This document shows positions 4,020-35,348 of a stretch of 64,000 bases of DNA, in pieces. Source of the DNA: Candidatus Aminicenantaceae bacterium (GTDB lineage: Bacteria; Acidobacteriota; Aminicenantia; Aminicenantales; Aminicenantaceae); NCBI GenBank assembly GCA_041862375.1, contig JBGVTE010000091.1:18975-82974 (forward strand). The letters are read 5' to 3'. The translations under genes and the position numbers were made by a program. Below the pieces are notes generated by a model, which was not told the DNA's origin, did not search any database, and saw nothing but the letters and a program-made list of their open reading frames with translations. Numbering within the stretch: the first letter of the stretch is position 1; each line of letters begins with the position of its first letter.

Positions 4020-5774
4020 ATGAAATACTTCCGAAAGGATAATGTAATGATCCGTACATTACGTTCAAAAAATCAATCGAATAGCCGGCTTTTTCTTGTT
4101 TTTATGGTCGGATTGGCGATTTTTTTGTCTCAGGTCTTGGTCTGCAAAAAATCTGAGCCAAGCAAGGTTCAGATCACTACTGATGTTAACAGGGATGGAA
4201 AGGTTGAATTCAGAACGGATAAGCAGGGGAAAAACGAATGGACTCCTGAGCGAGGAGCTATTTTCCTTAATAACAATGACAGTGACCAGGACACAAATGA
4301 GCCCGACTATGCTGATGATGTTATTAATGGACAGGAAGACATTAAAGATCTTTCAGTCATCAAGATCAGACAAATCCATGATCTGCCGGAGGATTCTCAA
4401 GTTGATATTTCTGTCGACGAAGCATCCATGTCCCGGGTTCGCTTATTCGTGAAGACAGCAAAAAATGAGTATAAAAACCTAACTTTATCAGCTAAATCCA
4501 ATATAAATCCTGCACAGTTGAGAAATGGTGACCTGGAACTGAGAATAGAAGCAAATTCCTATGCGGACAGCACCTGGACCGGTGAAACGACTGTTACACT
4601 CACTGTGAACCGTCCCGATGGAGAAACAGAATCCGACGCAATCATGCTCAAAGTCGCCCCGTTCATTCTACTGTCCAACCTCAATAAGGGAAGTGCTCTT
4701 TATGTGAGAGAATTCCCTGGGAGGAATGACTCTTTCCTGGAGAGTCTGAGGGAGCTTTTACCCGCTGCCGGTGCTGAGTTGGTTGTGGTCCCTGCGGGAG
4801 ATCCCTATCCTCCCCATCAAATATGGCTCCAGGACGCTCTGGAGATTGGCTACTCGGAGATCCCGGGTCATAAGATGAATGTGGTTTTAAAAGCCAACCG
4901 CGGCAGGCCTCTCGATGATTATGCAAAGCAAGAGCTCATGGGGCCTGATTTCGGCTGGATCCAAGTCGGAACATTCCGAAAAGACTACGGTGGGGGAAGG
5001 CGCAGCAACGGCTGGCTGGACTGGTATGGAAACCTGGAAGTCACCCCGCCATTACCCGGATATCCATTCGGCCGGTTTTACTGCGGATACAATCCGGATG
5101 GACCTGAAGAGGCATCTTTGAATCCAGAGATCATTAGTATGCTCGAAGCTCAAAAAATCCAGGGCCCTGCATTACGTCTCGATACAGGATGGCTGCTGAT
5201 AAAACACGTAGACGAAGTTATATCCTTCCTGCCCAGCGGTAATCCTGAACGTCCTTACAAAGTCCTTGTTGTTGATACAGGGTCCATGATTGCCCTACTT
5301 GAAAAATGGATGGAAGAAGGACATGGCGAAACACAGATGCTTGGTCTCTCTTCCAAAAAAATGACCATAAAAGCCCTCTATGAAAATAAAGAGCTCATGG
5401 AACTGAATAAATCTCTTCAAAAGGCACGAATCGAACCGAATATCGATCTTCTCAAAAGTGAGCTGCGCCTGGTGGAGGAGGATTTTATCAGAGTACCTAT
5501 CCTCATTGATAAGTATGGAACCGCTGTCGTTCCCAACATGGTCAATTCCACAATTCTGAATGGACATATCCTGATTGTTGCTCCCAACGGCCCTGAGATA
5601 GATGGAAAAGACCAACTAGAAGAGGAGATGCGCAGGCTCCTTTCTGGCCTGCCATTAAAACTGCACTTTCTAGATGCAATCCTCTATCACAATTGGGGAG
5701 GTGAAGTCCACTGCGCTACAAATGTGAGACGCGATGGATTTCAAACTCCGTGGTGGACCATAAAACACCCATAG
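4020..5774 (+). CDS. Secreted/membrane-anchored protein-arginine deiminase (PAD) family homologue
   Basis: The C-terminus GGEVHCATNVRRDGFQTPWW matches the catalytic-Cys region of vertebrate PADs (GEVHCGTNVRR..F..WW). The blocks WLQDALEIGY and MGPDFGW resemble PAD WMQDEMEIGY / MGPDFGY. N-terminal hydrophobic signal/anchor (LFLVFMVGLAIFLSQVLVC). An alternative start is at 4047. Confidence 0.6.
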   Translation: MKYFRKDNVMIRTLRSKNQSNSRLFLVFMVGLAIFLSQVLVCKKSEPSKVQITTDVNRDGKVEFRTDKQGKNEWTPERGAIFLNNNDSDQDTNEPDYADDVINGQEDIKDLSVIKIRQIHDLPEDSQVDISVDEASMSRVRLFVKTAKNEYKNLTLSAKSNINPAQLRNGDLELRIEANSYADSTWTGETTVTLTVNRPDGETESDAIMLKVAPFILLSNLNKGSALYVREFPGRNDSFLESLRELLPAAGAELVVVPAGDPYPPHQIWLQDALEIGYSEIPGHKMNVVLKANRGRPLDDYAKQELMGPDFGWIQVGTFRKDYGGGRRSNGWLDWYGNLEVTPPLPGYPFGRFYCGYNPDGPEEASLNPEIISMLEAQKIQGPALRLDTGWLLIKHVDEVISFLPSGNPERPYKVLVVDTGSMIALLEKWMEEGHGETQMLGLSSKKMTIKALYENKELMELNKSLQKARIEPNIDLLKSELRLVEEDFIRVPILIDKYGTAVVPNMVNSTILNGHILIVAPNGPEIDGKDQLEEEMRRLLSGLPLKLHFLDAILYHNWGGEVHCATNVRRDGFQTPWWTIKHP

Positions 5775-25610: not shown

Positions 25611-27236
25611 TTGTCCACTGAAAACAAATACAACAAAGACGAAATTCATGAGCTCATTTCAAAGGGAAAGAAGCAGGGTTATCTTCTATTTGAGGAAATC
25701 GATAAAACTTTTCAAAGCGATATTGGATCTAACGAAAGCTTCGACGACTTTCTCAGTTCTATGGATGATTATGGGATTAAAATCCTCGATACAAAACAAA
25801 AGGAGATTGTGCCTAAGAAAAAAAAGAGAAGTAGTCTTGTTTCACTTCACGGTTTAGAGCGAACTACTGATCCTGTGAAGCTCTATTTAAGAGAAATGGG
25901 CAATATTTCCCTGTTAACTCGAGAGGGAGAAATCGCAATCGCCAAAGAAATAGAAAGAGGTGAAAAAGCAATAATCAATGCTCTCTCAAAGACACGACTT
26001 GTCTTGAATGAAATTCTTTTGTTCCAAGATAAGATAAGAGATGATCCAATAATTCTTCAGGAAATGTTTGAGTTCATTGAAGACGACATCACTGAAGAAA
26101 AGCTCGAAGAGAAAAAGGACGAAATTTTAGAAAAAATTAAAAGAATCAAAAATTTAAGTGGAAAATTAGATAAAATTCCTCTGAAAAAAAAGAATCTATT
26201 CAGTCGAGGCCGGATAATTGTCAACATGAGCAAGATCATAAGGGAGCTTAATTTCCGCCCCAGCCATAGAGAAAAAATTATCAGCAACCTTCGAAAAAAG
26301 CTTCAGATAATAAACGAATTAGAAGATATTAAAGAAGAATTCAATGTAGCTTTGAGCCAGACTAAGCGTAAAAGAGAAACAGAATCTTTAAAATCAAAAA
26401 TCAAAGAAGTCAATAAACAGTTAAGATTTCATAATAAAGAAATAGGCCTCAACTCTCAAGGCTTAAGGAAAATAGTCCGCTCCATCACTACTGGAAAAAA
26501 GGTAAGCGATCAGGCGAAAAAAGAATTAGTTGCCGCTAATCTCAGGCTGGTCGTTTCTATTGCTAAAAAATACAGCAACCGGGGACTTCAGTTTCTCGAC
26601 TTGATACAAGAAGGAAACATGGGTTTAATGAAGGCAGTAGGGAAATTCGAGTACAGGCGAGGATATAAATTCTCAACATACGCAACGTGGTGGATCAGGC
26701 AGGCTATTACTCGAGCTATTGCCGACCAGGCTCGGACTATTAGAATACCAGTCCACATGATAGAGACTATAAATAAATTAATTAGAGTATCAAGAAGTCT
26801 TGTTCAAGAAATAGGAAGAGAGCCGACGTGCGAGGAAATTGCAAAAAAGATGGATATGCCGGTTAACAAAGTGAGAAAAATTATAAAAATTGCCCAGGAA
26901 CCGATTTCTCTCGAAACTCCAATAGGAGAAGAAGAAGACAGTCACCTGGGAGATTTCATAGAAGACAAAGTATTGCCTTCACCCCCCGATACAGTTATCC
27001 ATATCAATCTGAAAGAACAGATTGAAGAAGCTTTAAAAACTCTAACTGAAAGAGAAAGTAAAGTTTTAAAAATGAGGTTCGGATTAGGAGATGGAAATGA
27101 ACATACTCTAGAGGAAGTGGGGCAGCAATTTAAGGTTACTCGTGAGAGAATAAGGCAAATTGAAGCAAAAGCTTTGAGAAAATTAAAGCATCCAAGCCGG
27201 AGTCGTAGACTCAAATCTTTTACTGACGATTCTTAA
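25611..27236 (+). CDS. rpoD: RNA polymerase sigma-70 factor
   Basis: Region 1.2 ([11 protein letters not shown]). Region 2 ([54 protein letters not shown]). Region 4 ([15 protein letters not shown]...[28 protein letters not shown]). Confidence 0.95.
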
Positions 27237-27436
27237 TCCAGTACTTCCCTAAATCTCTAATTCAGCAAACCTAGTCTTCCTTTCCCTGACAACTTGTAGA
27301 TTGAGGTGATCCCAATATCGAATATATCATTTACTTACAGAACTAATTTTCCTTTTATCTATCATTTAGCCTACAGGCATACCCCTCATCTCCATATTGG
27401 TCGCTATCCCAAATAGCTTATAATTTTTATCTTTCA

Positions 27437-27478
27437 TTTTTTATTATAAGACAACAGCGAGGTCTTTTTATTTTTTTG
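27437..27478. repeat. Left copy of ~40-bp direct repeat (TTTATTATAAGACAACAGCGAGGTCTTTTTATTTTTTTG) bounding the island
   Basis: Near-identical copy at 34431-34475, 38/41 identical by eye. Confidence 0.55.
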
Positions 27479-27509
27479 ACGGTGTATCAGGGTCAAAATC
27501 TTGTTCCAG

Positions 27510-27545
27510 AAAATCCTTCGCTGGCAGCACAGCGGTCAAAAGATA
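27510..27545 (+). mobile_element. Short remnant of transposase-like gene (KILRWQHSG... segment)
   Basis: aaaatccttcgctggcagcacagcgg matches 34237-34262 and is paralogous to 30335-30360. Confidence 0.35.
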
Positions 27546-27667
27546 ATTTTTAAGTATGAATACTCCCCTGATTTTGTCGAAATTTACCTAAATTAAAACA
27601 CTCTCATAAGATAATTACGATTCAGCTTCCAGGTCTGTTTATAAAAGGAGGGTATAATTGTCCTTAC

Positions 27668-30007
27668 TTACTCGTAGCGGATGGAGTCGACCGGGTCGGC
27701 CAGGGCGGTCTTGATGACCTGATAGCTTATTGTGATCAACGCCACAACAAAGGTAAAAGCAACCGTCGCCACAACCACTCCCGCATCCAACTGTGTCCGG
27801 GATACAAACATGTTCAGGAACTTCCTGGCAGTAAAGTAGGCAACGGGAACAGCGATCAGATTGGCCGCCATAATGACCTTAAAGAACTTCCACGATAACA
27901 GGAACACAACTCCAGGCACGGAGGCTCCCAGGACTTTACGGATGCCTATCTCTTTTCTCCTCTGTTCCAAAAGGAGCGAGGCTAGACCAAATAATCCCAG
28001 ACAGGAGATAAACACAGCTAAGAAAGCAAAGCTGTTAAAGATTGTATTCATAATCTTCAAAGGAACATAGAGCATCTCAAACCAATCATCGAGGAATTGG
28101 TACCAGAACGGGAATCCCGGTGATACATCCTTGAAGACCTTCTCAATATAGGTCAGGCTCCCGGGAATATCTTCAGGGCTGATTTTAATAAGAAGGTCGT
28201 AAAACCAGCTGGGCCGAATACCCATAACCATTGGAGAAATATCAAAGATAAGCGGCTTATGGTTGAAATCCTTGACTACACCAATGATTCTTCCTTCTCT
28301 GCCGGCCAGAGCTACCCGCTTCCCGATCGGATTCGTCATTCCCATAAAACGAACTGCCGATTCATTTACCACATAAGCCTCTGAAGCGTCTGTCGTGTAT
28401 TCCTCTGAAAAATCCCGCCCCTGCACGATCTCCAGGCCAAATGTTTCTGCGTAATCATGGTCGACATACAGAAAATTCAATTCCACTTCCTTATCTGTTT
28501 CCATGCCCTCCCACTCGAAATCATTGACATTGAACAAGAAGTGGGGGGGAGCCGAGGCAAAAGTAACATTAAGGATACGCGGGTCTTGCAGCAGCTTGTC
28601 TTTAAAGGTTTTATGGGAGTCTCTTAACTCATCGTTCATCAGAATATGTACGATCTGCTCACGCGAGAAACCGAACTCGGTGTTTCGGATGTATTGCATT
28701 TGTTTATAGGCGACTACAGTCATGATGATCAGCAGCACAGATACAGAAAATTGGCTGACAACCAGAACAGTCCGTAGAGCGGCCCCCTTGCGGCCTCTGC
28801 TGGTATCCCTCTTTAAAACCCTGACAGGCTGAAAAGAGGAGAGAAATAATGCCGGATAACTCCCTGCAACAAAGCCAGTGACAACAGCCGCCACAACAAG
28901 CGAAAGGAAAATGAACATATTTCCAGAACCTAGAAGGGACATCTCTTTGCCTTGAATCCTGTTGAACACCGGAAGGAAAAGATCAACGAGAAAAACTGCC
29001 AGACAGAATGATATCAATGAGAGAAGCACAGATTCTCCCAGGAACTGCTTGATGATATCCGACCTTCTGGCACCGACCACTTTTCGTATCCCTACTTCCA
29101 GAGCACGGATACCGGAGTGGGCCGTTGTGATATTCATAAAGTTGACGCAGGCGATAGCCAGGATCATGACCGCGATCACGGCAAAAATAATAACAAATCT
29201 CTTATCACTACGGCCTCCCTGCATGATGTTCAAGTGGGCCTCTTTTATGGGCTGAAGAGTGACGGTATAGTCATCTTCTGGATGGTATTTCTGGATTGTG
29301 CCGGCGATCTTGCGGTTGATCTCCTCAACAGAAACCCTTTCCTGAAGCTGAACGTAAGCATCGGCCTCGCGCCACCAGGAAGAAAGCCGTTCGCTGTTAA
29401 AAACCTGGAGTGAGGCCATGAAGTCAAACTGAAGGTGCGAATTGTAGGGGACTTTTTCTATGACGCCGGTTACCTCGAGATCTTGTGTGTTGTTCCAGCG
29501 GAGGATTTTTCCCATGGGATCTTCTTCACCAAAATATCTTTGAGCCGCCTCTTTTGTGACTACCACAGAATTCTGATTATTTAAGGCTGTCTTCGGATTC
29601 CCTGTGACAAAATCATAAGAGAACATTGAGAAAAAAGAAGGATCGGTAAAAAAGAACCGCTGTTCATAGAAAGTGATATCGCCGTGCTTGACAGCACTGG
29701 GATAGGCACGGGTCCTGACTCGGGTTACCTCAGCAATTTCAGGATATTCTTCCTTGAGGATTTTAGGCAGAATATAGGGAGTACTGGGCATTCCCAGATC
29801 ACCCGGATCGTCGGCTTTCTTGAGAATGATGCGAAATAGCCGGTTGCTGTTGGTGTGGAACGTATCATAGTTCAGTTCGTCATAAACCCAGAGGAAGATG
29901 AGGATAAAGCAAGCCATCGCCACAGTCAGGCCAGCTATATTGATGAGGGAATAAACTTTGTATCTCCTGATGTTCCTGAAAGCGATCTTGAGGTAGTTTT
30001 TAAACAT
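27668..30007 (-). CDS. FtsX/MacB-type ABC transporter permease (two FtsX domains, no ATPase domain)
   Basis: N-terminal MFKNYLKIAFRNIRRYKVYSLINIAGLTVAMACFILIF TM1. Large periplasmic domains. C-terminal ...DSIRYE. Markedly GC-richer codon usage than flanking genes. Confidence 0.8.
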   Translation of the reverse strand: MFKNYLKIAFRNIRRYKVYSLINIAGLTVAMACFILIFLWVYDELNYDTFHTNSNRLFRIILKKADDPGDLGMPSTPYILPKILKEEYPEIAEVTRVRTRAYPSAVKHGDITFYEQRFFFTDPSFFSMFSYDFVTGNPKTALNNQNSVVVTKEAAQRYFGEEDPMGKILRWNNTQDLEVTGVIEKVPYNSHLQFDFMASLQVFNSERLSSWWREADAYVQLQERVSVEEINRKIAGTIQKYHPEDDYTVTLQPIKEAHLNIMQGGRSDKRFVIIFAVIAVMILAIACVNFMNITTAHSGIRALEVGIRKVVGARRSDIIKQFLGESVLLSLISFCLAVFLVDLFLPVFNRIQGKEMSLLGSGNMFIFLSLVVAAVVTGFVAGSYPALFLSSFQPVRVLKRDTSRGRKGAALRTVLVVSQFSVSVLLIIMTVVAYKQMQYIRNTEFGFSREQIVHILMNDELRDSHKTFKDKLLQDPRILNVTFASAPPHFLFNVNDFEWEGMETDKEVELNFLYVDHDYAETFGLEIVQGRDFSEEYTTDASEAYVVNESAVRFMGMTNPIGKRVALAGREGRIIGVVKDFNHKPLIFDISPMVMGIRPSWFYDLLIKISPEDIPGSLTYIEKVFKDVSPGFPFWYQFLDDWFEMLYVPLKIMNTIFNSFAFLAVFISCLGLFGLASLLLEQRRKEIGIRKVLGASVPGVVFLLSWKFFKVIMAANLIAVPVAYFTARKFLNMFVSRTQLDAGVVVATVAFTFVVALITISYQVIKTALADPVDSIRYE

Positions 30008-30271
30008 GCTGGCTCCTGTTTCCGAGAGTCCTAAAGGATAACATGATTTTCTGTCTATAAATAAGCAAAATTCATGCCATATTAAAATACTGATAAGAAA
30101 GCCTTATAATAAGGAAAAAATGAGATTTCAATGTCCGAAATAGGGCACAAAGCGTTCATTCTCGAACAGACACAGAAATTTAAGAGCTCATATGATGTCT
30201 CGATCTGTGAAAAGGCCAGTTCCATAAATTATCCTTCTTTGATTAGAGCCTGCAAGCAAAGTTTTTCTCGC

Positions 30272-30452
30272 GGGAGGTTTTTTCCATGTCGATGCACGAA
30301 GGACTCATCAACCTGGAAATCGTGCAAAAGATCTTGAGCTGGCGACACACAGGTTTCAATGTTCACACTAAAGTCAGGACTACAACTAAGAGAGAAGCAG
30401 AGAGAGTCGGCAACAAGCGCAAAAACCAAATTCTTATCCCTAAATAAATTGG
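30272..30452 (+). mobile_element. Internal fragment of transposase-like gene (paralogue of 33914-34313; IS91/HUH family by inference from that copy)
   Basis: Translation REVFSMSMHEGLINLEIVQKILSWRHTGFNVHTK... parallels the C-terminus of the 33914 fragment and the remnant at 27510. Lies in the divergent intergenic region between the two permeases. Confidence 0.4.
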
Positions 30453-30619
30453 AAAATAGTCAAATCAAGTCGTGCTTCTGATTGTTCGCATCTGGACACC
30501 GCATGTTTCGTAAGCGAACACAACCTCATGTTAAATCCTTGTAATTCGCGAATCGTTCCCTGATGAGGAGAAATGGTACATATCTTGCAAATGATTGGAG
30601 CTGGAGGCGATGAGATGAA

Positions 30620-33022
30620 ATGTTTAAAAATTATTTAAAGATCGCTTTACGAAACCTGTCCAAACAAAAGATCTTTTCAGCTATCAACATACTGGGTTTG
30701 GCTGTGGGCCTGGCCGGAGCCATTCTGACCTTCCTTTTCGTCCAGAATGAACTGTCTTACGACCGGTTTCATGAAAACGAGGAGAACCTGTACCGCCTTC
30801 ACACCTTATGGCACAAGGAAGATGGGAGCATTGAAAGGGCCTGGAAAAGCGTCACTATGCCCATGGGGCCAGTTGTGGAAGAGTATTTTCCAGAAGTCAC
30901 GTACTCCATCCGTGTCTCAAATGATTATGCCACTATTAAGACAGGAGGAAATCTCTATAACGAAAGAATCACTCAAGTGGATAAGCCTTTCTTCAAGGCT
31001 TTTTCATTTCCTCTGATAATGGGCGATCCTTCTTCCGTGTTCTCGCAGGATTACTCCATGGTCCTCACAGAAGACCACGCCCGGAAATATTTCGGAGACG
31101 CCAATCCTATCGGTAAAACCTTAATCCTGATCCACGGACAGGAACAGAGCGAATTTGTGGTGACCGGAGTGGCCGAACAACCTCCTTCAAACTCATCCAT
31201 CTCCTTCGACATCTTGATCGATATAGAAAGCGCGAACAGGCTGAACATAAACGTCAGGTGGCTTGATAACTGGGGCGGCTTCGCATGGCAGACTTATGTG
31301 CTGGTTCAGAGCAGAAGCTCCGTGGACAGCTTGCTGCAGAGATTTCCTGGCTTTATTGACCAGTATTATGCTTCCTTCATCGAGAATTACCGGACGCGGA
31401 GAAATTGGAAAAGTGAAGTATCGCCGGTCTCATTCGGACTCCAGCCCATAACGCGTGTTCACCTTGACCCCCAGGTCAAGGGATCTCTCAATCTGAGCGC
31501 CATATTCATTCTCAGCGGAATAGCCTTCATTGTTCTGTTTATCGCCTGCGTCAATTTTATGAACCTGTCCATTGGCCTGGCTTCAACACGGTCATTAGAG
31601 GTCGGTATGCGCAAGGTCCTGGGCGCAGAGCGCCGGCAGCTCATCCGCCAGTTCTGGGGAGAATTTTTAGTCACAACCGGGATCGCCATGATGGCGGGTC
31701 TCGCCCTGGCTGAGATCATGCTGCCGATATTCAACCGCCTGTCCGGCAAGAGCCTGAGTCTGAGAGAAATATTTCAGCCTGCCAATTTCTTGATCCTGCT
31801 GGCCCTGTTCATCATCGCGGGAATCGCCTCAGGAAGTTACCCGGCTTTGGTCATGTCCAGGTTCCAGCCGGTGGAAATCCTCAGAGGAAAGCTGAGAATC
31901 GGAGGGAAAAATCCCATAACCAGAGTCCTGCTCGTCGTCCAGTTTGCTCTTTCCGTTTTCCTCATCATCGCCACGATCATCATGGGGCGCCAGATCCATT
32001 TCATGCTCACTGCAGATCCCGGCTTCAACAAGGAAGGTATCGTGGCTGTCCAAACCCAGGAGCCGGAGGCCGAGGCCAGCAATGTAGCCCTTAAACTCTT
32101 TAGAGATCGTCTGAGTCAGCAGCCGAATATCGTTTCCATTTCAGGGACAACTGTTCGCTTCGGCGATGTGGCCGCCTATCCCATTGAGAAAGACGGCCGT
32201 GAAATCAATGTCTACCAGAACCGCGTGGATTATGATTTTTTCAAGACCATGGGTATCGAAGTGGTTCAAGGACGCACCTTCTCTCCTGAATTGGCCACTG
32301 ATGTTGATGGTGTGGTCGTAAACGAGAAACTAATCAAAGAGCTGGGGATAGAAGATCCCATAGGCAAACCGCTCAGGGGGTATTACATACCCCTGACGAT
32401 CATCGGTGTGGTCAGGGATTACATCACTGCGGATTTCCGGAACGATATCCTCCCGGCCCTGCTTCACATCAAGCCCGACTGGAGGATTAGAACCATACTG
32501 GTGCGGATATCCCCTCAGAACATCTCCGAAACCATATCGCTGCTAGAAAGAACCTGGGAGGAAATCCAGCCGAATAAATCCTTCCTCTACTCCTTCCTGG
32601 ATGAGTGGATGGAAGCCATGTACAGCGAGGAGAAAAGGTGGGGAGCGATCGTTGGGTATTCCACTGGGCTGGCAGTACTTATCGCCTGTATGGGCATCTT
32701 CGGCCTGACATCCATCACGGTGAACCAAAGGACTAAAGAGATTGGCATCCGAAAAGTCCTGGGCGCGAATGTCCCTCAGATCATCTATACATTAATCAAG
32801 GAATTCATCTTGTTGGTGGGTATCGCCAACATAATCGGCTGGCCTTTAGCCTATCTCGCTATGAGGACTCTGCTCAACAATTATTACTTCCGCATTTCCT
32901 TAGGACCCCAGTATTTCCTCTTGGCTGGAGTCCTATCCTTTTCTGTCGCAGTACTCACAACAGCCTTCCTGGCTGTCCGGGCGGCTGTGGCCAATCCTGT
33001 GGACTCACTCAGGTATGAATGA
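30620..33022 (+). CDS. FtsX/MacB-type ABC transporter permease, paralogue of 27668-30007
   Basis: N-terminal MFKNYLKIALRNLSKQKIFSAINILGLAVG. C-terminal ...DSLRYE. GC-rich like its paralogue. Divergently oriented. Confidence 0.8.
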   Translation: MFKNYLKIALRNLSKQKIFSAINILGLAVGLAGAILTFLFVQNELSYDRFHENEENLYRLHTLWHKEDGSIERAWKSVTMPMGPVVEEYFPEVTYSIRVSNDYATIKTGGNLYNERITQVDKPFFKAFSFPLIMGDPSSVFSQDYSMVLTEDHARKYFGDANPIGKTLILIHGQEQSEFVVTGVAEQPPSNSSISFDILIDIESANRLNINVRWLDNWGGFAWQTYVLVQSRSSVDSLLQRFPGFIDQYYASFIENYRTRRNWKSEVSPVSFGLQPITRVHLDPQVKGSLNLSAIFILSGIAFIVLFIACVNFMNLSIGLASTRSLEVGMRKVLGAERRQLIRQFWGEFLVTTGIAMMAGLALAEIMLPIFNRLSGKSLSLREIFQPANFLILLALFIIAGIASGSYPALVMSRFQPVEILRGKLRIGGKNPITRVLLVVQFALSVFLIIATIIMGRQIHFMLTADPGFNKEGIVAVQTQEPEAEASNVALKLFRDRLSQQPNIVSISGTTVRFGDVAAYPIEKDGREINVYQNRVDYDFFKTMGIEVVQGRTFSPELATDVDGVVVNEKLIKELGIEDPIGKPLRGYYIPLTIIGVVRDYITADFRNDILPALLHIKPDWRIRTILVRISPQNISETISLLERTWEEIQPNKSFLYSFLDEWMEAMYSEEKRWGAIVGYSTGLAVLIACMGIFGLTSITVNQRTKEIGIRKVLGANVPQIIYTLIKEFILLVGIANIIGWPLAYLAMRTLLNNYYFRISLGPQYFLLAGVLSFSVAVLTTAFLAVRAAVANPVDSLRYE

Positions 33023-33185
33023 TTGGAATGCAGTCACTCAACCCAGCCAGCCTCTTCCTGGCATCTTCAACCTCAGGAAGTTCTGGTCAGCATTTTTCCA
33101 GAAGTCGAGGAATTTCTGGTAATGTTCTATAGCTTTAAGTGTCAATTAAACAATTCATCCGATAAACCTTTAAAAGCATATATTC

Positions 33186-33734
33186 TTGAACATGCCGTAT
33201 GACTGTGATATAAAAAGCTTAAAAGTGGAAAAAACACTCAAAGTCATAAATGAATTAAAGAATAAGAAAGCTATTTCTGATTATGCTATTGGCGGAGGGA
33301 TTGCTGTTTTGTATTATGTCGAACCTTTGCTGACCTATGATTTAGACATTTTTTTTATTCCCATTGAAGCAAGCCTTAATGTTCTTGCTCCAATTTATAA
33401 ATATATGAGAGGAAGAGGTTATAAAATCCAAAGGGAACATATCTTAATCGAGGGAGTCCCGACACAGTTCATCCCTGTATATAATGAGCTCATAAAAGAG
33501 GCTGTTCAAAATTCGACTGAAGTAGAATATGGAAAAACAAAAACAAAAGTCTTGAGCCTAGAGTACCTTGTTGCTGTAATGCTTCAGACATATCGAGCTA
33601 AAGATAGGGAGAGAATCATAAAAATATTTGAAGAGGTGAAAGTTAATCTGAATTTCTTGAGAAAGTTATTAAAGAAACACAACCTAGATGAAAAATACGC
33701 TAAATTCAGAGGATTGTACTTTGAGGGAAAATGA
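33186..33734 (+). CDS. Nucleotidyltransferase-fold protein (minimal NTase motif GGG-x13-DLD)
   Basis: AIGGGIAVLYYVEPLLTYDLDIFF fits the hG[GS]...DhD pol-beta-type NTase signature. AT-rich gene inside the island. Confidence 0.4.
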   Translation: MNMPYDCDIKSLKVEKTLKVINELKNKKAISDYAIGGGIAVLYYVEPLLTYDLDIFFIPIEASLNVLAPIYKYMRGRGYKIQREHILIEGVPTQFIPVYNELIKEAVQNSTEVEYGKTKTKVLSLEYLVAVMLQTYRAKDRERIIKIFEEVKVNLNFLRKLLKKHNLDEKYAKFRGLYFEGK

Positions 33735-33894
33735 TATCTTGAGAAATATCTTCAGGGAAAAAAACCTGAGAAGGAAAGAGCTTTCAAAGCTACCCTTTGA
33801 GAGAAAGATTGAAATACTTCTACAGCTTCAAAAAATGGCAAAAGGAGTAAAAAAGCCGAAGGGAAAGAAAAACAGAATTATCTGGGATATCTGA
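33688..33894 (+). CDS. Small basic hypothetical ORF overlapping the NTase gene 3' end in another frame
   Basis: ORF only (68 aa, KKPKGKKNRIIWDI tail). Could be a partner or antitoxin-like gene, or spurious. Confidence 0.2.
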   Translation: MKNTLNSEDCTLRENDILRNIFREKNLRRKELSKLPFERKIEILLQLQKMAKGVKKPKGKKNRIIWDI

Positions 33895-33913
33895 TTAGTT
33901 ATACATAGTACCT

Positions 33914-34313
33914 TTGGAGGGGCGGGCGACAGAATTCTTTGAGGGTATAAGCTCTAATCTCTGTCTCTGCGGAAAAGGTGCAATTCTGAAATACTTCAGC
34001 GCTGTAACAAGCAAGGAGATTGCTCCCGGGACTATTGCCTTCATGCAGTCTTTCTGGTCAAAAATCAATTTTCATCCCCACCCACACTTTCTCCTCACTG
34101 AGAGAGGAGAAGATCAAGATGGACATTTCCATAAAATCTCAAGCTTCGATGAGAGCCTGATAGCTGAATTCTTCTCCAGAGAGGTTTTTTCCATGTTACT
34201 GCACAAAGAGCTCGTCAATCTTGAGCTTGTATAAAATCCTTCGCTGGCAGCGCACAGGTCTCAACGTGCACAGCAAAGTCAGAGCAAAAACCAAATTCCT
34301 ATCCCTCAAGAGA
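33914..34313 (+). mobile_element. Decayed IS91/HUH-family (rolling-circle) transposase gene fragment
   Basis: The 106-aa ORF contains INFHPHPHFLLTERGEDQDG, resembling the HUH His-hydrophobic-His block of IS91-family transposases. Its 3' part continues past a stop with homology to 30272-30452 and 27510-27545. Confidence 0.4.
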
Positions 34314-34395
34314 CGTTATCCCTCTATCCTTTTTGTCTTCTTCATACTTGAATGGGAGTGTTCTTTGTGACATGCTTTATTCACCTCGCTGGTTT

Positions 34396-34423
34396 TCTTC
34401 ACCCATTGGGTGAAGGTTTTTTA
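34396..34423 (+). terminator. Rho-independent terminator-like hairpin
   Basis: cttcacccattgggtgaag is a perfect palindromic stem, followed by gttttttat. Confidence 0.45.
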
Positions 34424-34430
34424 TGTTGCT

Positions 34431-34475
34431 TTCTTTTATTATTATAAGACAACAACGAGGTCTTTTTATTTTTTT
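34431..34475. repeat. Right copy of ~40-bp direct repeat bounding the island, 66 bp upstream of tRNA-CAT
   Basis: tcttttattattataagacaacaacgaggtctttttatttttttg versus the 27437-27478 copy. Confidence 0.55.
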
Positions 34476-34541
34476 GCCAGTGGATGAGGGACAAGCCTGT
34501 GTAATTGACTTGGAATGTGATATCTGCTATAAAAAATCTAG

Positions 34542-34613
34542 GGGCCTATAGCTCAGCGGTAGAGCCACCGGCTCATAACCGGCAGGTCCCAGGTTCGAAT
34601 CCTGGTAGGCCCA
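34542..34613 (+). tRNA. tRNA with CAT anticodon (elongator tRNA-Met or lysidine tRNA-Ile2)
   Basis: GGGCCTATAGCTCAGCGGTAGAGCCACCGGCTCATAACCGGCAGGTCCCAGGTTCGAATCCTGGTAGGCCCA. Acceptor GGGCCTA/TAGGCCC with G1-C72 paired, so not initiator. Anticodon loop CTCATAA. T-arm CCAGG-TTCGAAT-CCTGG. Confidence 0.85.
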
Positions 34614-34634
34614 TTTTCCATTTGAGGCAAAGAT

Positions 34635-35348
34635 GTGGAAATTGAGTTTGAGAATCTAATCGACCTTCAAGAACTTGATAAAAAAATACTCAACATCTCT
34701 GCTATTCTTGAAAATACACCTCCCCAAATAACAGAAATAGACAAAAAAATTGATGCCAGTGCTAAAATGGTTGCTGATGCCAAGGAAAAACTTGCTCAAA
34801 ACCAGAAAAAGAGAAGGGATTTAGAGAGTAAAGCTAAAGATCTAAAAGCGCAGATTTCAAGGTACAAAACTCAGCTTAATGAAGTAAAAACAAACAGAGA
34901 ATACAGTTCTCTTCTAAAAGAGATCGATGAAGCTCAAAAGCAGATTGATAAGATTGAAGACGAAATTATCAGTGAAATGCTCAATGCAGATGATATTGAG
35001 GAAGAAATAAAGGCAGTAACTCAAAAATACAACAAAGAGCAAAATAAATTACAGAAAGAAAAGGAAGCCATCTCTCAAAAGAAAAAAGAGTTAGAAATCC
35101 GAAGTAAAGAATTAGCTCAAGAAAGAGAAAAACTCATACATAAAATCCCTCCACCTCAGACCAAAATCTATTTCGAGATTTTTAAAAAATTAAACGGAGT
35201 TGCCCTTTCTCCAGTAAAGGATGAGCACTGTTCAATGTGCAATGTGCGAGTCAGGCCTCAAGTTCTCAATGAATTGAGAGACAGGGTAGATATTATATTA
35301 TGTGAAAATTGTGGCCGTGTACTCTATTTGTCTAAAAAATCAGGTTAA
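34635..35348 (+). CDS. COG1579-like coiled-coil protein with C-terminal C4 zinc ribbon
   Basis: Long heptad-rich N-terminus. C-terminal CSMCNVRV...CENCGRVLY. GTG start. Confidence 0.55.
   Translation: MEIEFENLIDLQELDKKILNISAILENTPPQITEIDKKIDASAKMVADAKEKLAQNQKKRRDLESKAKDLKAQISRYKTQLNEVKTNREYSSLLKEIDEAQKQIDKIEDEIISEMLNADDIEEEIKAVTQKYNKEQNKLQKEKEAISQKKKELEIRSKELAQEREKLIHKIPPPQTKIYFEIFKKLNGVALSPVKDEHCSMCNVRVRPQVLNELRDRVDIILCENCGRVLYLSKKSG

Follow-up and report, generated by a model that had tools for sequence, protein, structure and literature searches.

Elements of the IS91 family end in two dissimilar termini, oriIS and terIS, with subterminal palindromes and no terminal inverted repeats; their rolling-circle transposition starts at oriIS, and a tetranucleotide next to that end serves as target. 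Acidobacterial duplicated orphan permeases (ADOP; TIGR03434) form a family that was defined on three Acidobacteria species, according to its NCBIfam/TIGRFAM description. When termination at terIS fails, IS91-family elements carry adjoining DNA along with them, and their insertion makes no target-site duplication; a figure legend in the same source names the two ends without giving their positions (PMC13181058). ISCR elements, which belong to this family, likewise leave no target-site duplication, and integrons linked to ISCR1 are flanked by 3'-CS duplications (PMC3575428). Here we analyse a 64-kb stretch of contig JBGVTE010000091.1 from a Candidatus Aminicenantaceae bacterium (the window), in which two ADOP-like permease genes lie among pieces of an IS91-family transposase gene. 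These pieces and genes belong to an insertion of some 7 kb that is specific to this lineage (27497-34494, counting the right copy of a flanking repeat) in the normally short spacer between rpoD and a tRNA-Met gene. The block is a patchwork of accessory modules from the Aminicenantes, and we consider, with a probability of roughly 0.6, that IS91-family elements moved and assembled it.

The insertion stands out when the locus is compared with its counterparts in related genomes. An empty-site survey, in which we scanned with the variable N-terminal part of RpoD and kept one genome per species, yielded 60 Aminicenantes loci. In 43 related Aminicenantes species, 41-604 bp separate the rpoD stop from tRNA-Met, versus 7305 bp from the end of rpoD (27236) to the start of tRNA-Met(CAT) (34542) in the window. 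The tRNA gene, which an initial annotation of the window had placed next to the block as tRNA-CAT, was called by both ARAGORN and Rfam (70 bits), and the empty site that this annotation expected in relatives is thus found. About 45 related loci show rpoD followed by a zinc-ribbon gene, an acyl-CoA synthetase gene and gyrA, the same genes as to the right of the island, and none of them (0 of ~45) has permease or IS91 sequence between rpoD and the zinc-ribbon gene. Similarity to approximately 40 relatives picks up again at 34503, in the tRNA promoter. Loci L035, L037 and L055 were left out as uninformative, being from a group with another gene order (L-numbers denote the 147 fetched loci of relatives and metagenomes; L062 is Aminicenantes bin112, complete chromosome CP070825). 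We also asked whether the rpoD-tRNA spacer attracts insertions in general and rejected the idea: what the three excluded loci have is another conserved gene order, and further short contigs contained nothing recognisable. The features of the block and its borders, with strand in brackets where one applies, are the following (aa, amino acids; ORF, open reading frame).

25611-27236 (+): rpoD, the left chromosomal flank; ORF of 541 aa, 74-81% identical to rpoD of the 60 Aminicenantes loci.
27237-27423: spacer S1, 3' of rpoD; unlike the spacers of relatives, the IS91 loci and the right side of the island.
27424-27496 (+): left repeat copy, core 27431-27496; weak hairpin (AAGAC...GTCTT), then a T-run.
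27493-27537 (+): remnant A, an internal piece (aa 225-236 of a 431-aa transposase) of the remnant C subtype.
27538-27667: 130-bp stretch 3' of permease 1; no match in any fetched locus.
27668-30007 (-): permease 1, 779 aa, intact; duplicated MacB_PCD+FtsX (Pfam E=3e-36 and 1e-17).
30008-30179 (-): region with the promoter of permease 1, also conserved in bin112, nucleotide homology continuing through it.
30210-30437 (+): remnant B, internal piece 30210-30413 (aa 189-255) joined to the right (putative oriIS) terminus 30414-30437, motif gcgcaaaaaccAAATTCTTAT.
30452-30619 (+): upstream region of permease 2; homology begins at 30452 (L063) or 30480-30483 (L062 and L064).
30620-33022 (+): permease 2, 800 aa, intact; duplicated MacB_PCD+FtsX (Pfam, NCBIfam).
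33040-33140 (-): stump of a Ser/Thr-kinase-TPR gene, its last ~35 codons, frameshifted; KAIEHYQKFLDFWKNADQ / PELPEVEDARKRLAGLS match the C-terminus of the L147 kinase.
33225-33734 (+): predicted nucleotidyltransferase (NT169), 169 aa, GC 0.335; weak match to Pfam DUF2204 (E=1.6e-4).
33688-33894 (+): small ORF overlapping the 3' end of NT169; 68 aa here, 57 aa in L146.
33952-34302 (+): remnant C, whose internal piece 33952-34283 (aa 134-248, with a single frameshift) is joined to the right (putative oriIS) terminus 34284-34302.
34303-34417 (+): 115-bp stretch between the terminus of remnant C and the right repeat; matchless elsewhere; hairpin at 34396-34416.
34418-34494 (+): right repeat copy, core 34429-34494; ends 47 bp before tRNA-Met(CAT).
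34500-34613 (+): conserved tRNA promoter and tRNA-Met(CAT), the right chromosomal flank; AATTGACTTG-N17-TATAA, then the tRNA at 34542-34613.
34635-35348: zinc-ribbon gene, first of the right-side genes syntenic with the ~45 related loci.

The two permeases are divergent and share 35% identity; they are the pair of FtsX-type paralogues of about 800 aa that had been noted from the sequence, each with two MacB_PCD+FtsX units. Their GC-richness, also noted at that stage, is pronounced, with a GC content of 0.47 and 0.50 vs ~0.39 for the window. GC at third codon positions (GC3) is 0.549 for permease 1 (z=5.2) and 0.618 for permease 2 (z=7.2), where the 37 other window ORFs of at least 150 aa have a mean of 0.370 and a standard deviation of 0.034; the excess is significant. 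A second, milder compositional outlier in the window is a 584-aa ORF at 4020-5774 on the plus strand (GC 0.46, GC3 0.465, z=2.8). GC-richness as proof of a distant donor was ruled out, since orthologues in other Aminicenantes, whose hosts have ~41-44% GC, share a GC3 of 0.54-0.66.

The same divergent pair is present in bin112, with orthologues of permease 1 (83% aa identity; L062 6135-8474) and permease 2 (81%). At the nucleotide level, window positions 27668-30179 correspond to L062 6135-8647 (84% identity) and 30483-33026 to L062 9867-12407 (82%), so that the homology, both promoter regions included, begins at the permease 1 stop codon and ends 4 bases beyond the permease 2 stop. Where bin112 has an intergenic 1.2-kb hydrolase gene, the window has 303 bp that include remnant B (together with 30180-30209). 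Synonymous divergence (dS) between the two genomes is 0.57 for permease 1 and 0.59 for permease 2, and the ratio of nonsynonymous to synonymous divergence (dN/dS) is 0.16-0.19 (0.16 for permease 1); both genes are under purifying selection. In contrast, the proportion of synonymous differences (pS) between the same genomes is 0.73-0.84, which is saturated, at dnaG, rpoD, gyrA and the acyl-CoA synthetase gene. Comparison of permease 2 with L063 and L064 (dS 0.64-0.89) gives the same contrast with housekeeping genes. A permease dS of ~0.58 next to saturated housekeeping genes shows that lineages shared the pair well after their genomes had diverged, and the low-GC nucleotidyltransferase gene of the block gives the same dS contrast, which is therefore not an artefact of codon bias. 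Because bin112 holds the same divergent high-GC3 pair, the donor pool lies within the Aminicenantes. About 70 homologues of permease 2 are of ~800 aa (nearly all exactly 800) and 67-84% identical, those with names coming from metagenome-assembled genomes (MAGs) of Aminicenantes/Acidobacteriota; permease matches in the database with E<1e-30 number 7869. Judged by these comparisons, the permeases are foreign to the rpoD-tRNA position but not to the phylum. The initial annotation had regarded them as a foreign pair, which holds for the position and not for the lineage.

The transposase-like pieces in the flanks and in the divergent spacer, originally reported as three partial copies, are indeed present, with limits now refined to those listed above. 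All three are mutually homologous and lie on the plus strand (within-window BLAST E 1e-4 to 1e-20). An HPHPH motif, on which an IS91/HUH-family assignment had been based, is located at 34073-34087 in remnant C, where the intact L066 transposase has HPHLH (aa 174) in the alignment; remnants A and B do not reach this HUH position. With its frameshift repaired, remnant C scores 26.5 bits (E=3e-6) against the NCBIfam IS91 model NF033538 (cut-off 125) and 19.8 bits (E=9e-4) against Pfam Y2_Tnp (cut-off 20.9), falling below both cut-offs because it represents one third of the gene. Its intact relatives of 431 aa (L066) and 422 aa (L067) score above the cut-offs, at 209-211 bits on NF033538 and 88-94 bits on Y2_Tnp, and carry both PF04986 and PF14319, which upholds the family assignment. 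Across the aligned part, database homologues of remnant C show 46-83% identity; most have PF04986 and some PF14319 as well, and the named ones are from Aminicenantes/Acidobacteriota MAGs. Remnant A is identical to 34233-34260 at 25 of 28 positions and matches the L066 transposase in blastx (E=3e-5). The Zn-binding domain PF14319 (aa 29-118) and the RYYGLY tyrosine motif (aa 313) are absent from remnants A, B and C, which marks these as remnants and not active members. They are dead remnants of an Aminicenantes IS91-family (HUH/Y2) element. Remnant B is 88-90% identical at the nucleotide level to copies in L066, L103, L131 and L068, and remnant C ~80% identical to copies in L066, L131 and L103, whereas B and C share only 72%; two IS91 subtypes are thus present.

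A metagenome scan for the transposase returned 80 loci with many full-length copies, which occur in direct arrays, as deletion derivatives and as solo right ends. Similarity among the copies ends past a right-terminus motif, ...AAAAC(C/G)AAATTC(C/T)TAT, found 195-225 bp past the transposase match in 38 of 53 related copies; the right terminus of the L066 element, which encodes the 431-aa TnpA, is AAATTCCTAT. In the window this motif ends at 30437 in remnant B and at 34302, the last base of gagcaaaaaccAAATTCCTAT, in remnant C. Both are therefore internally deleted elements that kept the right terminus, and a common 41-bp internal deletion as the origin of their shared tail is ruled out, because the tail is this terminus. 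In IS91-family elements oriIS lies on this side of tnpA, which makes the right terminus the putative oriIS. Left ends of the relatives carry GTAAAC-N4-GTTTAC palindromes, and an nhmmer profile built from 52 left ends found none in the window. Among the bases that follow the right terminus, CTTT, CCTT and CTTG are enriched in relatives; in the window CCCT occurs twice.

The right-hand part of the block has relatives of its own. Window positions 33042-33952 match 3809-4721 of L146, a JGI contig, at 90.7% nucleotide identity, and dS for NT169 is 0.20 against L146 and 0.53 against L147. The predicted nucleotidyltransferase has 569 homologues, mostly of 169 aa, and its two-gene arrangement with the small overlapping ORF is also seen in L146. 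In Pfam and PADLOC searches NT169 yielded the weak DUF2204 match alone and the small ORF no match. The ~100 bp of the kinase stump are found again in L079, L109, L128, L142, L146 and L147. Copies of the kinase-TPR 3' end occur on both sides of the NT169 module in L146 (3809-3900 and 4817-4866) and around it in L147 (643-692 and 4995-5085), with the stump at 33040-33140 as the window counterpart. The NT169 module may be a small mobile or duplicating unit at the ends of kinase-TPR genes. L147, from a close relative, has a kinase, NT169, a hydrolase, a permease and an IS91 piece in an order that differs from the window. Nucleotide comparison with the fetched loci left less than 300 bp of the block without assigned relatives. 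Taken together, the block is a mosaic of at least five modules with separate relatives, drawn from the Aminicenantes gene pool.

A direct repeat brackets the whole block, not a single IS copy. It had been described as ~40 bp long; it is there, at a length of 66-77 bp. The cores of 66 nt are identical at 58 positions (88%), BLAST extends the alignment to 77 nt at 84% identity (E=1e-18), and the exact runs within it are 16 and 21 bp. The divergence of the copies, 12-16%, is similar to that between remnants A and C (11%). Several identities of the repeat were tried and rejected. It superficially resembles the left-end palindrome region of L066, but the nhmmer left-end profile and BLAST against the 80 IS91 loci were negative. 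It is not a conserved chromosomal sequence, as the spacers of the 43 relatives lack it, and for this reason the ancestral copy cannot be told. Nor is a repeat pre-existing in the spacer supported, since 0 of the 20 spacers from relatives that measure 150 bp or more contain an internal direct repeat. As for a phage or island att site, the core is absent from IMG/VR and from the 147 fetched loci.

The history that we favour for the block runs as follows. IS91-family elements would have moved and assembled it, the cargo lying on the upstream (terIS) side of the remnants, where adjoining DNA is carried along if termination fails (one-ended transposition). The last integration step, or a rearrangement after it, would have proceeded by recombination of a circular or duplicated intermediate sharing the repeat segment, and internal deletions would afterwards have destroyed each transposase copy, leaving the block fixed. 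The recombination step is suggested by the presence of a flanking repeat in a family without target duplication, for which it is the most economical reading. In favour of this history, the three remnants have the same orientation, two keep a putative oriIS terminus, and the cargo lies upstream of those termini; the orientation of the pieces is compatible with one-ended rolling-circle transposition. Recurrence in metagenomic loci also speaks for it, with the direct arrays, deletion derivatives and solo right ends of IS91 copies and, in 10 of 80 loci, an adjoining ADOP-like permease.

Several observations weigh against it. There is no terIS end, intact transposase or circular junction in the sequence, so that rolling-circle capture is not demonstrable, and remnant A measures just 45 bp. 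Insertion of an IS91 element does not duplicate the target; the flanking repeat of 66-77 bp is thus no IS91 scar, which argues for another or an additional integration step. The 84-88% identity of its copies means that the event is old or that the copies have different sources, and the repeat is absent from the spacers of the 43 relatives, the 80 IS91 loci (BLAST), IMG/VR and all 147 fetched loci. In three other genomes the loci of the permease orthologues are without IS91 within 10 kb. An ADOP-like permease stands beside or between IS91 copies in 10 of the 80 metagenomic loci (~7 independent; for example L091, L070 and L080), and ADOP-like genes are so abundant that this adjacency may be due to chance. 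We make no claim of enrichment from the count (10 of 80 loci in 587 kb vs 0 in 868 kb of rpoD loci), because the rpoD loci are syntenic housekeeping DNA and thus an unfair background. The initial annotation had proposed one-ended IS91 transposition as the explanation of the permease pair: the geometry fits, while the process is not demonstrated, the repeat is no IS91 scar and the block is a mosaic rather than a single captured piece.

Some of the same evidence would suit a history in which the IS91 pieces are bystanders or portable homology, the block, or its modules in turn, having come from other Aminicenantes through homologous or illegitimate recombination, or from a plastic permease cluster through shuffling within the genome. 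We regard this as unlikely, though deserving serious attention. Remnants A and C are of the same subtype and stand in direct orientation at the two ends, as they would after IS-IS recombination that excised and re-integrated a circle, and the 66-77 bp flanking repeat is a signature of a single crossover, unlike IS91 transposition (PMC13181058). Module borders fall at or near gene ends (27668; 33026, 4 bases past the permease 2 stop; 33042; 33952), the modules differ in their closest relatives, and L147 shows the same kinds of modules in jumbled order. On the other hand, recombination of this kind does not require the uniform orientation of the remnants, the two retained oriIS termini or a cargo that lies to the terIS side, and exact runs of only 16 and 21 bp are marginal for RecA-type recombination.

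The location beside tRNA-Met invites comparison with the tRNA-linked islands of tyrosine recombinases, which the block resembles in adjoining a tRNA gene, in its direct repeats, in its deviant composition and in having an empty site in relatives. The repeats would then be attL and attR of a degenerate island that lost its integrase gene, and their imperfect copies with exact cores of 16 and 21 nt do surround a compositionally deviant block; moreover, four related MAG contigs break in or just past tRNA-Met (L007, L053, L060; L020), hinting at repeats. This origin is nevertheless improbable. Unlike in such islands, the repeat includes no portion of the tRNA, and the block was inserted upstream of the promoter of that gene; no integrase or recombinase domain was found by Pfam in any ORF of the block, the unassigned sequence leaves no room for an integrase remnant, and the repeat core has no counterpart in IMG/VR. 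Two last possibilities, an ancestral arrangement that relatives lost by deletion and a chimera made in assembling the MAG, are very improbable even though the closest relative compared is only ~81% identical in RpoD, given the short spacer in 43 species across the group, the deviant GC3 of the cargo with a dS to other genomes far below that of flanking genes, and block repeats that, at 90% identity or less, are too diverged to mislead an assembler.

The permeases themselves are best named ADOP-like. Both align end to end with TIGR03434 (positions 5-803 of 803; E ~1e-87), but their scores of 294 and 292 bits are far below the curated cut-off of 622.3 bits, which makes them a sister group and not members by the NCBI definition. 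They share with ADOP the chain of ~800 aa, the two MacB_PCD+FtsX units and the lack of an adjoining ABC (ATP-binding cassette) ATPase; they differ in the host, which belongs to the Aminicenantes, and in the score. No ORF with Walker A plus an LSGGQ-type ABC signature was detected in the 64-kb window, and the ten ORFs adjoining the permeases have no ABC or membrane-fusion protein domains, their domains being unrelated. The absence of a neighbouring ATPase or adaptor, reported earlier as a peculiarity of the island, is thus confirmed as an observation, and it is the norm for the family, as the clusters of ADOP-like genes in relatives indicate. As in ADOP, related genomes (L062 and L064) hold large paralogous clusters, often with a PadR gene: bin112 has four paralogues within 22 kb, and L064 at least seven over the same length. 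At the edge of one such cluster there are a stand-alone ABC ATPase and a membrane-fusion protein. This is the cluster in L064 (1-22403; at least seven ADOP-like genes and a PadR gene), and its 229-aa ATPase is a candidate for a shared energiser of the orphan permeases. The two permeases are presumably membrane components of type VII ABC (MacB/LolCE-like) systems with an ATPase supplied in trans. With MacB and LolCDE they have in common a periplasmic core and FtsX transmembrane domains, and presumably the principle of mechanotransmission, whereas they have no fused or adjacent nucleotide-binding domain or adaptor and combine two half-permeases in one chain.

Compared with described IS91/ISCR elements, the window has IS91-family remnants with an HUH motif, whose intact relatives pass NF033538 and have dissimilar ends (a conserved right terminus and left-end palindromes), and its cargo lies on the upstream side of same-strand copies. 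Like ISCR1 regions with their 3'-CS copies, the block has a duplicated segment at its two borders (PMC3575428), although here the duplication is just 66-77 bp and diverged. The differences are that all window copies are dead, without Zn domain, catalytic tyrosines or terIS; that the cargo consists of permeases and a nucleotidyltransferase module and not of resistance genes; and that the host is an uncultured member of the Aminicenantes. Against the model for ISCR clade Ia (cut-off 925) the intact relatives reach only 148-152 bits, which places them in the IS91 family, outside ISCR clade Ia.

The block is a fossil IS91-associated accessory islet with ordinary ADOP-like permeases; the insertion is real and its kind is already known. 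The empty-site control in 43 species and the dS contrast document accessory-gene exchange among uncultured Aminicenantes. The exchanged genes are accompanied by an IS91-family element that is abundant and had not been characterised before; with palindromes at its left end and a right terminus that can be defined, it is a concrete candidate for rolling-circle gene capture in an uncultured phylum, and this offers a hint on how orphan FtsX-type permease families spread. For annotation, an "ATPase-less permease island" is ordinary in this lineage. A bolder proposal, doubtful as it stands, is that Aminicenantes IS91 elements are an ISCR-like capture system shuttling ADOP-like gene-plus-promoter cassettes within and between genomes; it draws on the shared orientation of the remnants, the retained oriIS ends, the low dS of the cargo and the ~7 independent IS91-permease adjacencies. 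If true, gene capture of this type would operate outside clinical Proteobacteria and drive the expansions of ADOP-like paralogues in Acidobacteriota-related phyla, and the window would be a fossil of such a transfer.

Further observations concern the IS91 copies in metagenomes and the flanks of the block. In L105 (5568-8828), L107 (2238-5501) and L110 an IS91 copy is interrupted between aa 49 and 96 by the same ~2.3-kb insert, with a 394-aa ORF that has no Pfam match, and within 5 kb of L110 (5095-10007) four right termini of IS91 also stand in direct orientation. The hairpin at 34396-34416 with its T-run is the strongest terminator-like structure of the region (9-bp stem, 5 GC pairs, tail TTTTTTATGT) and stands immediately before the right repeat copy. 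The tRNA-Met promoter (34500-34541) is kept in ~40 Aminicenantes loci, while the remaining rpoD-tRNA spacer cannot be aligned. The contigs of L007, L053 and L060 end within the tRNA-Met gene 3' of rpoD and that of L020 a few bases beyond, and such ends at the 3' half of the tRNA suggest repeated or variable sequence there in other species. The Rfam search of the block found the tRNA alone; antisense to it (34542-34614, minus strand) there is a sub-threshold match to Plastid-ycf2 (42.7 bits; gathering score 65.7) that the tRNA sequence almost certainly produces as an artefact.

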